Part shown: positions 21,799 through 27,278 of the stretch, in pieces
Layout of the letters: every line of letters starts with the position of its first letter
How positions within the stretch are numbered: position 1 is the first letter of the stretch
Sequence record: PZ386961.1
Direction: 5' to 3' (one strand)
DNA length: 64,000 nt
Source: a phage
Notes under the pieces: model-generated
What the model was told of the DNA's origin: nothing
What the model saw: the letters and a program-made list of their open reading frames with translations, nothing else
Databases searched by the model: none
Made by a program: the position numbers and the translations under genes

Positions 21799-22698
21799 AT
21801 GTCACAAGCAGATACAAGTTACAAAAATATCCTGAACCATGTTTTATCCGTTGGTGAACTGCGTACTACACGAACTGGAGATGTTATCTCTGCTTTTGCT
21901 CCACCTCAGTTTCGTTTTGATATGAGGACTGGTTTCCCGCTCTTAACATCTAAACAGGTGTTTACACGGCAAGTTATTGGGGAGGCTTTATGGTTCCTGA
22001 ATGGTGAGAATAAGCTGGGTGAACTTCGTTACCGTACTTGGGGTGAAAATGACGGAGAACGCTGGACTATCTGGTCAGATGATTTTAAACGTTGGTTAAG
22101 CTCTAATTATTCTTCTGAACAAGATTGGTTAGAGGATGCAGGTGGGAGAATCTATGGAGTTCAGTGGAGAAACTTTGAAGGTCATAACGGTTGTGTTGTA
22201 GACCAGCTAGAGACCTTAGTAACGAAGATGAAGGGTGATATCACAGACCGATACATGCTTGTTAATGCTTGGAATGCAGCAGATATCGCAGCAAACTCAA
22301 TGGCTTTAGCACCTTGTCATGTTCTGTTTCAGATTTATATCACTAACGAAGGTGAAGTTGACTTGCAATGGTATCAACGTTCTGTAGACACCTTTTTAGG
22401 GCTCCCATTTAACATTGCGTCTTATGGCTTCATCTTAGAAGTTCTTTGCAAGATGACTGGATACACTCCACGGTACTTGATAGGTGTCTTTGGAGATACT
22501 CAGATTTATCAGAACCATATGAAACAGGTTTATGAACTGATGAACAATGAAGAGTTCCATGCACCAACTTTTGAGATTGGTCTACCACTTAACACTTTAA
22601 GTGACCTGAAACATCTTACTGCAAGTGATTTTATTGGTGGCATTAACAACTACCAACATGCAGGGAAGATTGAAGCACCTCTGTCAGTAGGTAAGTAA
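21799..22698 (+). CDS. thyA: thymidylate synthase
   Basis: Catalytic cysteine context LAPCH and overall ThyA-like sequence. Confidence 0.85.
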   Translation: MSQADTSYKNILNHVLSVGELRTTRTGDVISAFAPPQFRFDMRTGFPLLTSKQVFTRQVIGEALWFLNGENKLGELRYRTWGENDGERWTIWSDDFKRWLSSNYSSEQDWLEDAGGRIYGVQWRNFEGHNGCVVDQLETLVTKMKGDITDRYMLVNAWNAADIAANSMALAPCHVLFQIYITNEGEVDLQWYQRSVDTFLGLPFNIASYGFILEVLCKMTGYTPRYLIGVFGDTQIYQNHMKQVYELMNNEEFHAPTFEIGLPLNTLSDLKHLTASDFIGGINNYQHAGKIEAPLSVGK

Positions 22699-22702
22699 AA
22701 AC

Positions 22703-22738
22703 AAAAAAGGCTCCCGTAAAAAGGAGCCTTAAAATTTT
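22703..22738. terminator. bidirectional rho-independent terminator (aggctcc-cgtaaaaa-ggagcct flanked by A-run and T-run)
   Basis: Hairpin between convergent genes thyA (+) and 22737..23108 (-). Confidence 0.6.
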
Positions 22739-23108
22739 ATTTTTCAGTATTCTTTGTGTTCTTTTCAGTAATAGCTTGCAAGGCTGATACTGATTGGGCC
22801 AGATTGTTCACACTGTCAGAGAATTTATCAAGAGTTTTGGTAAGTTTCGCATTCTCACCCTTAATATTCTCTAACTGGACTTTCTGGTTCTCCATCCCTA
22901 GCTGAATCAGTCTCATGTCAGACTGTAAATCACGAATAGCTGAATAGTTACTTTTGGAATAATTATCTAGCTGCTGTAACTTTGTTGTGACAGATACTTC
23001 TTGCTTACCACTTGAAACTTGCATAGTGGTATACATTCCAATAACACTAAAAATACCAACTACAATTGCACCAATATTATTTTTAAAAGCTTCCTCTAGC
23101 CACTTCAT
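22737..23108 (-). CDS. membrane-anchored coiled-coil protein (possible holin or i-spanin)
   Basis: N-terminal TM helix GAIVVGIFSVIGMYTT then coiled-coil; downstream of tail fibre genes. Confidence 0.3.
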   Translation of the reverse strand: MKWLEEAFKNNIGAIVVGIFSVIGMYTTMQVSSGKQEVSVTTKLQQLDNYSKSNYSAIRDLQSDMRLIQLGMENQKVQLENIKGENAKLTKTLDKFSDSVNNLAQSVSALQAITEKNTKNTEK

Positions 23109-23302
23109 TTATTCTCCCCCTTAAAAGCTTTTTCTAAGTTATCTACGAACTCATCATCAATAGGTGTGTCTGTCTTACTCGCAAGATATCTTGCAAGCTT
23201 AAAGAACACTTTCTCAATCATGTATTCACTTAGAAGGGATAAAATGAGTTTCCAGAAGAAGCTACCTAGATTTTTTAGAAGAATTGCTAGGATTGTAGGC
23301 AT
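23105..23302 (-). CDS. small membrane protein
   Basis: 65 aa with one hydrophobic helix; ATGA overlap with downstream gene. Confidence 0.35.
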   Translation of the reverse strand: MPTILAILLKNLGSFFWKLILSLLSEYMIEKVFFKLARYLASKTDTPIDDEFVDNLEKAFKGENK

Positions 23303-23381: not shown

Positions 23382-25751
23382 TTAAGCAGTTCTTACCCAA
23401 GCCATTAACTTATAGAACTTGTTAGTAACACTGAATGCTGAACCAGAACCAGTACCACCTGTGTTACCACTAACTGTGTGGCTGTGAGCACCAATACCAA
23501 CAGTGTGGCTGTGAGCACCTGTTGTATTTGTTACACCTGTCCAAGTCCTTGACGCTTGGAAATCAGCAGCAGCACCGTAAGTGAAGTTAGAGCCTGTGAA
23601 GCCATGTGAAGACTGAGAACTACCCATCTTAAACGCACCACTAGCAGTGTAGAATGAACTATTATCACTTCTGAACCAACCAACCACACCAGTAATCTCC
23701 ATAGTACCTCTGTTGTGGTTATGGTTACCAGTTGTACTAGAAGTTTTAGTACCATAATCAAATGACGAAGTAGTCGCAGAGAAACTATGCGTGTGTGAAG
23801 GCAAGTTACCAACAGCTAATGTTACAGAGTCTGAACCACCAGTTGTAGCAACATCTGAACCGTTTGCTGCTGCAATTCTAATAGTTCTACCAACACCATT
23901 GTTCAGGTACGTCCAAGTTAACCCAGGAAGTGCTGTGTTAGGGTTGACATTACTGTTAAACCACGTCACAATCCCTACTGGATAGATTTTATTCAGGTCT
24001 GTAGAGTCACTAATTGCATCTGCAATCTTCTGGTCAGTTTCAGCTTTAGTGTATGCACCGATGTCTGAAGGGGTTGGTTTATCTTTGTCTGTATAGATTT
24101 TAGACCAAGCACTCTCAAAACCATAACCGTCTCTTGCTGACCTATACCAAAAACCGCCATTGTTGTAGTTAAATTTTAACTGAGTTGCTGGTGTAGAACT
24201 GCTACCCTGATACATATGGTAGACCAGTTGTGTTGAACCACCAGATTTCGTTGTAACATTATACAGACCAGTTTTAGCATTCCAAGCAATTCCATCACTA
24301 TCACCTACCTCTGTACCAGAACCAGTAGATACAGCAAGCATGTACCTAGAGTTTGCGACAGATTGCGTATAATATCTAGCATCTAAGTTAGAGAAATCTG
24401 AAGGTTGAATCTGCCCTGCTAGGGTTAATGTCTTATTGATACTTGCAGATGAGTTACCTAAAATTAACCAAGTGCCAGAGAAGCTGTTGTTTAAGGCTAC
24501 ATCAGTAGAATTTGGGTCACCAACACCTAACCACCATCTTGATACATTGGCAGCGTCCTTACCACGAATATACAATGGCCTATTCTGAGTAGAGTTTTTA
24601 ATAACTAAACCTTCACCATCACTAACAACTGTTTGCGCACCATTAAAAGTATTTTGTGCATTAGTTCTTGCAATCGTACTTAATGTTGCTACCGGAATAT
24701 ATCTAGAGTCAATGTTAGCCCAATCTGAAGGTTGGACTTGTCCAGTGATTTGCACAGTTTTATTGATACCAATAGTAGTACCTAGTGAAACCTGTGAACC
24801 TGTAAGGTAGTTATAAATGTTTAGACGTGTCTCGTCAGAATCTGTACCAACATACCATTTATTTGTTCCATCAGACTTCTTACCGAGAATGTAAAGTGCT
24901 GTATTTGCATCAGTATTCTGCAAAGTAATGGCATTAGCATTCTTCTTAGCAACAAGGTTAGTGAAAGTGTTAGCACCTGTAAAAGTATTATTGCCAGCTA
25001 ACTGTGCAAATCTCTGATTAGCAACTGTCTGAGTGAAGTATCTCGCATCTAAGTTAGAGAAATCTGAAGGTTGAACTTGACCAGTGATTGCTAAAGACTT
25101 ATTAACAGAGACATTACTTGCAACAGTCAAGGCTGAGTTGTATTTGTTATTGTACAGCTTTACTTCGTCAGAGCCATTACTACCAATACCAACCCACCAT
25201 CTAGTCGAACCATCTAGGTTTACACCTTCGATATATTGTGCATTATTTGCATTTTGGTTTCTAAGGCGAAGTAAGTTAGCATCACCTTGAATATTTTGAG
25301 TTCCAGAAAATGTGTTTGTGATAGCAAGTCTTGCGTATCTTGCATCATTCTCTTCATTAGTCCTCATACCAAGCTCATTAGGACTTGGCTTATTCAGAGT
25401 ATGATAAACAGTTGCTGACCTTGAAGCATCTGCAATAGTTAGTTTAAGACCATTTGCGTTAATTTTAAAAGTCTTTAAAATATCCCCAATAGTAATCTCA
25501 GAAGAGCCTGTAGGGTCAAATACAGCCTTACCACCATAAAGTAACTTGACAATACCTAAATCCCCCGTCATAGTGCTCCCAGCAATCTGAACAAACCTTT
25601 CTAGTTTGAAGGAAGCTAAGAAGTCTTGATAGGTCATTCTGCGGTCTTCATCACCCAACATTTCAGGTCTTTTCTTAACTCTGATGTGCAATAGGTCTTC
25701 TGAACGAATTGTGTCGATTGAGTTTAATTGACTCAATTTGTAATCTGCCAT
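23382..25751 (-). CDS. tail fibre protein (His-rich HxH repeat tip)
   Basis: 789 aa; C-terminal repeats NLPSHTHSF, GAHSHTVGIGAHSHTV; follows baseplate genes. Confidence 0.7.
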   Translation of the reverse strand: MADYKLSQLNSIDTIRSEDLLHIRVKKRPEMLGDEDRRMTYQDFLASFKLERFVQIAGSTMTGDLGIVKLLYGGKAVFDPTGSSEITIGDILKTFKINANGLKLTIADASRSATVYHTLNKPSPNELGMRTNEENDARYARLAITNTFSGTQNIQGDANLLRLRNQNANNAQYIEGVNLDGSTRWWVGIGSNGSDEVKLYNNKYNSALTVASNVSVNKSLAITGQVQPSDFSNLDARYFTQTVANQRFAQLAGNNTFTGANTFTNLVAKKNANAITLQNTDANTALYILGKKSDGTNKWYVGTDSDETRLNIYNYLTGSQVSLGTTIGINKTVQITGQVQPSDWANIDSRYIPVATLSTIARTNAQNTFNGAQTVVSDGEGLVIKNSTQNRPLYIRGKDAANVSRWWLGVGDPNSTDVALNNSFSGTWLILGNSSASINKTLTLAGQIQPSDFSNLDARYYTQSVANSRYMLAVSTGSGTEVGDSDGIAWNAKTGLYNVTTKSGGSTQLVYHMYQGSSSTPATQLKFNYNNGGFWYRSARDGYGFESAWSKIYTDKDKPTPSDIGAYTKAETDQKIADAISDSTDLNKIYPVGIVTWFNSNVNPNTALPGLTWTYLNNGVGRTIRIAAANGSDVATTGGSDSVTLAVGNLPSHTHSFSATTSSFDYGTKTSSTTGNHNHNRGTMEITGVVGWFRSDNSSFYTASGAFKMGSSQSSHGFTGSNFTYGAAADFQASRTWTGVTNTTGAHSHTVGIGAHSHTVSGNTGGTGSGSAFSVTNKFYKLMAWVRTA

Positions 25752-25797
25752 TATAAATTTTCCTCTTAAAAGGGGCTACAAAGCCCCTGTAAAGAAA

Positions 25798-26973
25798 TTA
25801 AGCTGTTCTCTGCCACACATATACTACAAAAGATGGTTGCTCAACACTGAAAGCTTGACCACCACCAACAGAACCAGATGTTCCTGAGTGTGTATGTTCG
25901 GAGCTAGAAACAGTAACAGACCCTGTATGACTGTGTGAACCAATATTAACAGTGTGGCTGTGAGCACCAATTGCAACAGTATGACTGTGAGCACCAGATG
26001 ATGCAGTTGTACCTGAGAAGCTATGAGTATGAGCACCAGCCAAATCAGTATACACAGCATACCCAACACCAGCATCAGCGGATGCAGTAATAGCATTTGA
26101 CCCACCTCTGTCGTTACCCCTCATAGGTACTCTATGGTTGTGGTTACCAGCATTACTTGTCGTGCCACTAAAAGTGTGGGTGTGAGCACCAGAACTGTCA
26201 GTCGTTTTTGTACCGTAGTCAAAAGTTGATGTACTCTTTGAACCATAATCAAAACTAGAGATAGATACACTTGCAGAGTGTGTATGACCACCACCTGTTA
26301 AATAGATAGAGTGAGTGTGTGCTGGTAAATTATTATTTGTTAATGCTACAGTCTGAGAACCAAACGTTGAACCAACAGGTCTAGAATCTGTATCATAACC
26401 AACTAGTGCTCTACCTTTAGAAACTAACTCCCAAGTACCTCCACAAAGTAAGTAAGTGGATGGGTTAGCTGGATTCACAGATAGATGGATTGTCCCTACT
26501 GGATATGATGCTTGGATAGCTTTGTACAATTTATTGACTGCTTTTGCTGTAGCATATTTATCAGCATCTTCATTATATAAATTAGATGTTGTCCAGTTTT
26601 GAACGTTACTTAAACCAACCTGTGCTTTCGTTGTATTGTGTGGGTTACTTTTATCGTCAATATGTTTCTTAATTAAATTATTCACTTCCTCTGACGACAT
26701 AATTTGTAGATTTGCTCTTGCCTCAGCAACATTCACAATGTCTGACAAGTTATTAGCTGCAACTAATTGAAGAGAGTTAATAACATTATCAAGACCCACT
26801 TGTGATTTAGTTACACCATGAGGATTATTCCTCAGAGATGCGTGAGGTGCTAACAACTGCTCAAGCGTACATCTTTTATCCTCAACACCTTGCTTAAGGT
26901 GGAAGATATCACTCAAATCAATTGGTAAGGCCGCTTGTGGCAAGGCACTAATTTGAATTTCACCTACTGCCAT
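25798..26973 (-). CDS. tail fibre protein, second (paralogous His-rich tip)
   Basis: 391 aa; C-terminal NLPAHTHS..., AHSHTVAIGAHSHTVNIGSHSHT repeats similar to 23382..25751. Confidence 0.7.
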   Translation of the reverse strand: MAVGEIQISALPQAALPIDLSDIFHLKQGVEDKRCTLEQLLAPHASLRNNPHGVTKSQVGLDNVINSLQLVAANNLSDIVNVAEARANLQIMSSEEVNNLIKKHIDDKSNPHNTTKAQVGLSNVQNWTTSNLYNEDADKYATAKAVNKLYKAIQASYPVGTIHLSVNPANPSTYLLCGGTWELVSKGRALVGYDTDSRPVGSTFGSQTVALTNNNLPAHTHSIYLTGGGHTHSASVSISSFDYGSKSTSTFDYGTKTTDSSGAHTHTFSGTTSNAGNHNHRVPMRGNDRGGSNAITASADAGVGYAVYTDLAGAHTHSFSGTTASSGAHSHTVAIGAHSHTVNIGSHSHTGSVTVSSSEHTHSGTSGSVGGGQAFSVEQPSFVVYVWQRTA

Positions 26974-26975
26974 TA

Positions 26976-27278
26976 TTAAGCTCCTACATATTCATATGTG
27001 TAAAGGTTTCTTGTACTTGTTGATGCAGTCCCTGTCTCAGACTTAATGAGGTTCCAGCCATTAGCCACTAAATCTGGTTGCTCAGTTGCATATGAACGAA
27101 CTTCACCAACAGTGCCATTTACTTTATTCAGCAGGTAGTTGATAATATAGTTGAACCACTGTCTACCCATAGGCTCACCCTTTAAAAGACCTGTCTCTTG
27201 AACTTCCGGTGGTGGTAAAACTTTTAACTGATTACCATCAGTATCTACTTCGTTTGTAGACCAATTTAGAACTGCCAT
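26976..27278 (-). CDS. putative tail fibre/baseplate connector protein
   Basis: Position between baseplate and fibre genes. Confidence 0.3.

Follow-up and report, generated by a model that had tools for sequence, protein, structure and literature searches.

Positions 23382-26973 of a 64,000-nt stretch of phage DNA (sequence record PZ386961.1; "the window" refers to this whole stretch) consist of exactly two minus-strand open reading frames (ORFs) of 391 and 789 amino acids (aa) with 46 nt between them. The two genes very probably encode the short tail fibre (STF) and the long tail fibre (LTF) of a Felix O1-like phage, both side fibres with a T4 gp37-type tip. This high degree of confidence applies to the reading as a whole and includes the assignment of the two proteins as orthologues of gp26 and gp27, the two kinds of side fibre of phage Bas63. 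Judged by sequence and profile homology, both fibres end in a T4 gp37-like tip composed of a collar, an ascending strand with HxH histidine motifs, a histidine-free hypervariable head, a descending HxH strand and a C-terminal strand (Table 1). Two fibres with gp37-like HxH tips have already been published for Felix O1-like phages (vB_EcoM_VpaE1 in 2015, Sf14 and Bas63 in 2025). To these, the window adds one natural allele pair with O157-type tips and 9 + 4 HxH motifs, and the comparison with relatives adds a map of breakpoints, the varying number of HxH motifs and the covariation of the two tips, the last of which may be of interest if confirmed.

Identity of the Phage and Orthology of the Fibres

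By its DNA, the phage is a Felix O1-like myophage of the genus Felixounavirus and belongs to the E. coli O157 clade. A megablast search with the region retrieved 232 phage records, nearly all of them Felix O1-type phages of Escherichia or Salmonella, with MET-P1-301 as the best relative (93.8%). For the adjacent baseplate DNA, about 25 records, mostly of phages isolated on E. coli O157:H7, show 95-98% identity, as opposed to about 80% for most other members. The order and sizes of the window ORFs match gp22-gp29 of Bas63 (JohannRWettstein, MZ501086), the shared order being wedge 2, wedge 1, platform, STF, LTF, a 65-aa protein, a 123-aa protein and thymidylate synthase, and the flanking proteins are 84-99% identical to their Bas63 counterparts. 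On the same strand, both fibres are preceded by baseplate genes encoding a Baseplate_J protein of 489 aa, a 284-aa baseplate protein and a 100-aa protein.

Within this syntenic arrangement, the STF is 74.8% identical to Bas63 gp26 and the LTF 62.1% identical to gp27. The STF matches the tail fibre family phrog_2097 over its full length (E 1e-136) and contains the Pfam domain Gp10_C (PF21939; E 5.8e-18, 66.6 bits vs a cut-off of 27). The LTF is matched end to end by the tail fibre family phrog_4277 (E 0) and contains three copies of gp37_trimer (PF20744) and a gp37_C domain. Many GenBank relatives carry the label "hypothetical protein" on these fibre genes, the annotation of which is the practical value of the assignment.

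The N-terminal region of the STF, which includes two NPHxxTKxQVGLxNV motifs at aa 50 and 110, is the most conserved part among relatives; residues 1-210 are 92% identical to gp26, with a ratio of nonsynonymous to synonymous substitution rates (dN/dS) of 0.03-0.07. The following collar matches the C-terminal domain of T4 gp10 (2FKK; E 3e-7). The name "short tail fibre" is one of relative length and does not denote membership of the T4 gp12 type: since a PDB sequence search with the STF (E <= 0.01) yielded gp37 and gp10 chains and no gp12 chain that would extend the homology beyond the collar, the STF is not counted as gp12-type.

Both fibres have been visualized in relatives. Cryo-electron microscopy (cryo-EM) of Bas63 identified gp26 as a 430-Å short tail fibre on domain 2 of wedge 2 and gp27 as a long tail fibre of 630 Å that attaches to the gp25 platform; both end in a tip resembling that of T4 gp37, made up of a collar, a small head and a six-stranded needle whose HxH motifs number seven in gp26 and six in gp27 (Sci Adv 2025; PMC12609058). 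The tips are the most variable parts across the genus, and for other structural proteins of Felixounavirus the divergence from Bas63 is mostly not much above 5% (PMC12609058). In the Shigella phage Sf14, a Mooglevirus, gp52 (391 aa) and gp53 (792 aa) were likewise observed on the virion, with lengths of 430 and 630 Å (Commun Biol 2025; PMC11821841). Earlier, homology to the gp37 adhesin had been noted at both C-termini in VpaE1 (gp74 aa 146-362 and gp75 aa 584-780), whose fibres have conserved N-termini and variable C-termini; gp75 was among the structural proteins identified by mass spectrometry, and gp74 is listed alongside in Figure 5 (Viruses 2015; PMC4690856).

The window resembles Bas63 in the lengths of the two proteins (391 vs 382 aa and 789 vs 784 aa), in N-termini that are more than 90% identical and in the LTF collar (97% identical). 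In contrast, the tips are other alleles (about 34% identity at STF 241-330 and about 24% at LTF 666-750), the HxH motifs number 9 + 4 instead of 7 + 6, and most LTF shaft modules are 13-50% identical. The hosts differ as well, the closest relatives of the window having been isolated on O157 and Bas63 on K-12. Sf14 and VpaE1 share the same two-fibre locus and differ from the window in their tip alleles and in genus or host; three Sf14-like loci (L012, L021 and L094) show 61% identity to the window in the STF tip and 41-62%, depending on the alignment used, in the LTF head.

In T4, gp37 is the distal half-fibre of a long fibre built from four proteins and requires the chaperones gp38 and gp57A (PMC6957217). 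The window fibres differ from this system in that each would be a single protein attached directly to the baseplate, with no chaperone-family match in the two downstream genes. With the tail fibre S of phage Mu and the prophage and tailocin fibres of Enterobacterales, the window fibres have only domains in common, the N-terminal parts of those fibres being others (PF12571, PF03406, PF03335). In Mu, a separate chaperone assists the fibres. No Mu-type chaperone homologues were found by the authors of the Sf14 study (PMC11821841), and in the window the tail-fibre chaperone family (Tfa/U) was not matched by the 65-aa or the 123-aa downstream ORF, the two genes searched against Pfam and PHROG.

Homology of the Two Tips to T4 gp37

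The initial annotation had described two adjacent tail fibre genes that share a histidine-rich tip and differ in their N-terminal parts. The motifs it quoted are indeed present, NLPAHTHS at STF 216-223 and NLPSHTHS at LTF 650-657, as is GAHSHTV, which occurs twice in each protein, with GSHSHTG found additionally in the 391-aa protein. In total, the STF contains nine HxH motifs (four in the ascending and five in the descending strand) and the LTF four (two and two), in each case flanking a histidine-free head. Among 10,000 shuffles of the C-terminal 250 residues, none reached nine or four motifs, respectively, the means being 1.35 for the STF and 0.29 for the LTF.

A BLASTP comparison aligned the two C-termini with 31% identity over 272 columns (E 2e-19) and found no significant similarity between the N-terminal parts, which agrees with the described combination of related tips and different shafts. 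Comparison of the STF family profile with an LTF-tip family profile built from 61 homologues extended this similarity from the collar through the last residue (99.9%, E 9.5e-34). In hhalign, the LTF collar aligns to the STF collar with 99.9% probability when the family profile is used, and the two conserved C-termini (AFSV...W.RTA) co-align to the final residue.

The assumption that these are tips of the T4 type is likewise borne out by both sequence and profile searches. The crystal structure 2XGF covers T4 gp37 residues 785-1026, with the collar as domain D10 and needle plus head as domain D11. STF residues 146-362 match this T4 gp37 tip (2XGF residues 18-227) with E 2.3e-25, and the ascending strand aligns residue by residue to the gp37 needle. 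The seven HxH motifs of T4 each have an STF counterpart in register, and the STF has one further motif at each collar-proximal end (219 and 360). For the LTF, the match to 2XGF has an E value of 8e-4 with the single sequence and of 2.8e-13 with the family profile. Seven iron ions are held by the HxH motifs along the T4 needle (PMC6957217, PMC12609058); these ions are critical for folding, and gp37 residues 1010-1026 form part of the collar (PMC6957217).

Ahead of its collar, the LTF also contains the gp37_C domain, in which residues 477-577 match residues 329-427 of the Mu tail fibre S (PDB 8JU3; E 5e-25). This domain occurs in some relatives only; elsewhere its place is taken by unrelated, often longer sequence (11 types), and the length of the LTF among relatives ranges from 777 to 856 aa.

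Homologues of the LTF collar plus needle (43-52% identity) are also encoded in chromosomes of Erwinia, Providencia, Mixta, Photorhabdus, Serratia, Pantoea and Xenorhabdus. Their annotations name phage baseplate or tail fibre proteins, and most of them contain one more HxH motif than the window LTF. A recent gene conversion between the STF and LTF tips was considered and rejected, as the shared DNA repeats are just 57-69 nt long, 67-80% identical and all located at HxH-coding stretches.

Probable Exchange of Tips and Shaft Modules

The fibre loci were compared across 29 IMG/VR, 11 metagenome and 16 GenBank loci together with Bas63 and MET-P1-301. A protein search with the LTF tip returned prophage fibres and split phage fragments and no full-length Felixounavirus long fibre, and LTF orthologues were therefore taken from the loci. 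Along the LTF, segments of 11-12 unrelated types are interspersed with conserved blocks (aa 1-150, the collar at 571-665 and, at the C-terminus, 39 residues). Identity to Bas63 accordingly changes from 97% to 24% and back to 97% through collar, head and C-terminus. The synonymous divergence (dS) of the LTF head is 0.84-0.90 when compared with MET-P1-301 and a second relative (L010), the value for MET-P1-301 being 0.90, as opposed to 0.04-0.27 in the flanks; the best relative of this head is found in vB_EcoM_Shy (90-94% DNA identity). The STF head displays the lowest conservation in its family (0.42-0.50) and 30% identity to Bas63.

The LTF shaft is built from repeated modules, which are separated by conserved 15-residue junction motifs, GQ(V/I)QPSD(F/W)(S/A)N(L/I)D(A/S)RY, at aa 224, 337 and 446. 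Conservation peaks at these motifs and falls between them, and the shaft DNA contains the direct repeats D2 and D4. One module, from aa 337 to about 462, differs at 10 of about 370 nt from the Salmonella phages Felix O1 and BPS15Q2 (97-98% DNA identity). Its boundaries coincide with the second and third junction motif, identity drops to 15-55% in the flanks, and the neighbouring baseplate DNA of Felix O1 and BPS15Q2 shows about 80% identity to the window. These identity values mark the module as recently exchanged between phages whose hosts belong to different genera, with the cuts at the junction motifs. The window LTF is not matched throughout by any one relative, and the best donor switches about a dozen times along the gene.

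The same pattern is apparent between well-known members of the group: Felix O1 and Bas63 have backbones that are 96% identical and tips with 32% and 41% identity. Host-range modularity, one of two functional suggestions made when the genes were first annotated, is thus supported in that both tips are replaced like cassettes on near-identical backbones. From the alignments, tips and shaft modules are best described as cassettes bounded by conserved sequence, and the joining points (collar, C-terminal strand and the 15-residue junction motifs) would be useful for host-range engineering of these biocontrol phages.

Covariation of the Short and the Long Fibre Tip

Across 52 distinct Ounavirinae genomes, the number of HxH motifs is 9 or 7 in the STF and 6, 4 or 7 in the LTF, and the combination of 9 + 4 seen in the window recurs in 12 genomes. 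Clustering at 70% identity in these 52 genomes resulted in 9 types of STF tip and 11 types of LTF head. The two partitions largely coincide (adjusted Rand index 0.84), in contrast to the agreement of either tip partition with the backbone (0.19-0.25) or with the intervening shaft segments (0.08-0.17). The association persists when backbone distance is controlled (partial Mantel r 0.56, p 0.0003). Between the two tips lies the LTF shaft of roughly 2 kb, in which the 11-12 module types assort independently. The tip pairs also follow the isolation host, with a separate pair each for K-12, O157 and Salmonella phages; the K-12 pair includes Suspvirus members at 79-87% backbone identity.

Because the tip types coincide while the shaft between them shuffles almost independently, the two tips are read here as a matched pair. 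It is tentatively proposed that STF tip and LTF head are co-selected as such a pair and that infection needs both to fit one host surface, in the manner of a two-key AND gate; this is a possibility to be held with less than even confidence. The pairing is tentatively taken to favour a matched pair directed at one host over two independent host ranges. Two-step recognition of lipopolysaccharide (LPS) in T4-like phages offers a parallel for two tips that fit the same host. In the literature searched, no statement of the matched-pair idea was found. If it is true, host jumps or retargeting of Felixounavirus need two coordinated tip replacements instead of one.

A Model of the Two Fibres and Its Alternatives

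The following model best explains these data. Each fibre protein would form a homotrimer, as suggested by the T4 crystal structure and by the cryo-EM of Bas63 and Sf14. The N-termini would dock on the baseplate, the STF on domain 2 of wedge 2 and the LTF on the 100-aa platform protein encoded just upstream. By analogy to T4, each HxH motif, contributed by all three intertwined chains, would form one octahedral metal site (iron, Fe(II) held by six His) and staple the six-stranded needle, which predicts nine metal sites in the STF and four in the LTF. The C-terminal strand would then return to the collar and the head would contact LPS; in T4, the receptor of the head is LPS or OmpC. The comparison of the 52 genomes suggests that host range evolves through homologous recombination that swaps cassettes: head and distal needle would be replaced as a segment flanked by the conserved collar and C-terminal strand, and the LTF shaft modules would be exchanged at the junction motifs. 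The two tips seem usually to be passed on together as a matched pair, and recognition of a single host surface, in sequence or in cooperation, may fit this better than two independent host ranges. For Bas63, an intact LPS core is known to be required (PMC8594841). In the PhageMaP analysis of the same phage, which gives no per-gene values, positions 0 to about 21,000 are uniformly essential, a range spanning gp26 and the start of gp27.

Several observations weigh against this account. In the Bas63 virion, the head of the short fibre sits between sheath domains, where a docking role is possible as well as or instead of recognition (PMC12609058). Six genomes (Shigella phage Tf, here ShigTf, L022, L015, L016, L034 and CitroHP1/L030) contain unmatched tip pairs, which implies that such combinations are viable. 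The 52 genomes are phylogenetically non-independent, their sampling followed the isolation host, and part of the pairing signal could stem from host-related population structure. At the level of domains, the LTF collar scores 20.1 bits against Pfam Gp10_C and thus falls under the curated cut-off of 27, although LTF-tip homologues carry precomputed PF21939 assignments. AlphaFold2 (AF2) monomer models based on alignments of 50 and 61 sequences reached a mean predicted local distance difference test (pLDDT) score of 65.4 for the STF and 62.9 for the LTF, with values below 50 in the heads and of about 90 in the STF collar. A Foldseek search of both models against the PDB gave no match at E <= 0.001; the best hits of the STF model were the C-terminal domain of T4 gp10 (2FL8, E 0.11, and 2FKK, E 0.15), followed by long beta-hairpin pore toxins, and the tip protein of Bizionia C24 was matched weakly by both models. 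Low model quality is expected for an intertwined trimer modelled as a monomer. As such monomer models are uninformative, the assignment of the tips rests on sequence and profile homology.

Dual receptor specificity, the second suggestion of the initial annotation, is a hypothesis. According to this explanation, the two fibres recognize two receptors independently (OR logic), each tip opening separate hosts. The two heads of this phage share no detectable similarity, and different receptors for the two fibres were proposed as a possibility by the authors of the Sf14 study (PMC11821841). A phage isolated on Shigella flexneri, ShigTf, combines the STF tip type of the window (94%) with another LTF head (38% identical to the window and 80% to the Sf14-like locus L012), as independent receptors would allow. 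However, independent tips should assort as freely as the shaft modules, which is at odds with an adjusted Rand index of 0.84 compared to 0.08-0.17, and the tip pairs follow the isolation host (K-12, O157 and Salmonella). Independent recognition is therefore regarded as rather unlikely, yet it is the alternative that survives best.

It is less probable still, though worth stating, that the LTF is the sole receptor binder and the STF tip is mainly structural, holding the fibre along the sheath and taking part in triggering. In its favour, the head of the Bas63 short fibre lies between sheath domains D2 and D3 of the tenth sheath ring, and the short fibre is better ordered than the long one in the virion (PMC12609058). 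A docking surface should, however, co-vary with its partner and not with the host, whereas the STF head is the most variable part of the protein and its tip, which is homologous to a proven adhesin, is of a type that follows the isolation host.

The view that one of the two genes is a decaying duplicate, unexpressed or absent from the virion, might draw on three related loci, L009 (EC6-like), L025 (Si3-like) and L091, in which the LTF is frameshifted or split and the HxH tip is located on the second ORF. In the window, however, both ORFs are intact and preceded by good ribosome-binding sites with Shine-Dalgarno sequences (GGAG upstream of the STF, the ATG of which lies 2 nt past the stop codon of the platform gene). 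Almost all relatives have both genes intact, as seen in 52 distinct genomes, and dN/dS calculated against four relatives is 0.03-0.42 in all segments, the tips included. Since both orthologues are seen by cryo-EM on the virions of the relatives Bas63 and Sf14, decay is refuted for the family, and it is very improbable that either window gene is a remnant.

Finally, the idea that the shared HxH motifs reflect convergent low-complexity sequence, which the biased composition (G, S, T, H) and high HMMER bias scores might suggest, has next to no likelihood, as the similarity spans the histidine-free collar (YPVG...W...G) and the histidine-free C-terminal strand, the E values are 2e-19 and 9.5e-34, and the order and spacing of the motifs are those of T4 gp37.

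Features of the Locus and Neighbouring Genes

Table 1. Positions of the fibre genes, their predicted regions and neighbouring elements in the window (HxH positions refer to the respective protein).
Feature	Position	Strand	Remarks
Short tail fibre gene (STF), 391 aa	25798..26973	-	Orthologue of Bas63 gp26 and Sf14 gp52
STF N-terminal region, predicted baseplate-binding, and helical region, aa 1-142	26548..26973	-	>90% identical to Bas63 gp26
STF collar, about aa 143-218	26320..26547	-	Aligns to T4 gp10 C-terminal domain and 2XGF collar
STF ascending needle strand, aa 219-282	26128..26319	-	HxH at 219, 230, 264, 278; two FDYG repeats
STF head, hypervariable distal tip, about aa 283-312	26038..26127	-	No His; flanked by the two HxH strands
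STF descending needle strand, aa 313-365	25879..26037	-	HxH at 315, 329, 338, 347, 360; aligns to T4 gp37
STF C-terminal strand, predicted to return to the collar, aa 366-391, ...GGGQAFSVEQPSFVVYVWQRTA, plus stop codon	25798..25878	-	Conservation 0.82-0.91
STF-LTF spacer hairpin AGGGGCU-UUGU-AGCCCCU, then UUUU	25771..25788	-	Stem kept, loop variable, 17 sequence variants
LTF Shine-Dalgarno AAGAGG	25762-25767	-	
Long tail fibre gene (LTF), 789 aa	23382..25751	-	Orthologue of Bas63 gp27 and Sf14 gp53
LTF N-terminal region, predicted baseplate-binding, aa 1-150	25302..25751	-	93% identical to gp27; dN/dS 0.05-0.12
LTF shaft, aa 151-470, repeated modules (PF20744 x3)	24342..25301	-	
LTF junction motifs	25038-25082, 24699-24743, 24372-24416	-	
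LTF shaft module, aa 337 to about 462	24370..24740	-	97-98% DNA identity to Felix O1 and BPS15Q2; recent exchange
LTF gp37_C domain (PF12604), aa 476-584	24000..24326	-	Pfam E 4e-27
LTF collar, about aa 585-650	23802..23999	-	96-99% identity in most relatives of the genus Felixounavirus
LTF ascending needle strand, aa 651-681	23709..23801	-	HxH at 653, 677; one FDYG; aligns to 2XGF
LTF head, hypervariable distal tip, about aa 682-744, 63 residues	23520..23708	-	
LTF descending needle strand, aa 745-765	23457..23519	-	HxH at 747, 756
LTF C-terminal strand, predicted to return to the collar, aa 766-789, ...GSGSAFSVTNKFYKLMAWVRTA, plus stop codon	23382..23456	-	97-100% identical to Bas63
100-aa protein, orthologue of Bas63 gp25 (LTF platform)	26976..27278	-	87% identity, same position; phrog_4141 E 1.5e-60
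123-aa small membrane-type protein after LTF	22737..23108	-	
65-aa small membrane-type protein after LTF	23105..23302	-	

The spacer between the two fibre genes (25752-25797 in the window) measures 42-51 nt in all relatives and folds with a minimum free energy (MFE) of -16.8 kcal/mol (z -2.05). Apart from the conserved hairpin, the MFE fold contains an outer helix in which UUUCUU, located just past the STF stop codon, pairs with the Shine-Dalgarno sequence of the LTF; this helix is weaker in some divergent relatives. Such a structure could couple translation of the LTF to that of the STF. The hairpin was also considered as a terminator and rejected, its features falling outside the criteria of the terminator scan.

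In each of the HxH tip regions, a 93-aa ORF rich in Leu, Val and His is present in an alternate frame of the minus strand (23531..23812 and 25824..26105). Both are most likely by-products of the repeat-rich coding sequence.

The role of the 100-aa protein upstream of the STF as a platform, i.e., as the attachment point of the long fibre, is taken from the description of gp25 in Bas63 (PMC12609058). Downstream of the LTF, the 123-aa and 65-aa proteins are 97-98% identical to Bas63 gp29 and gp28. Neither has a significant Pfam match and both belong to PHROG families of unknown function, although the 123-aa protein bears the label holin in several relatives.

A strong bidirectional terminator-like hairpin with nine pairs and T runs on both strands is located at 22707-22730, between the end of the tail and lysis operon and the convergent thymidylate synthase gene. 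The latter is intact in the window (21799..22698, 299 aa), and in MET-P1-301 (L002, 4421-5319) it is annotated as two coding sequences of 600 and 246 nt.

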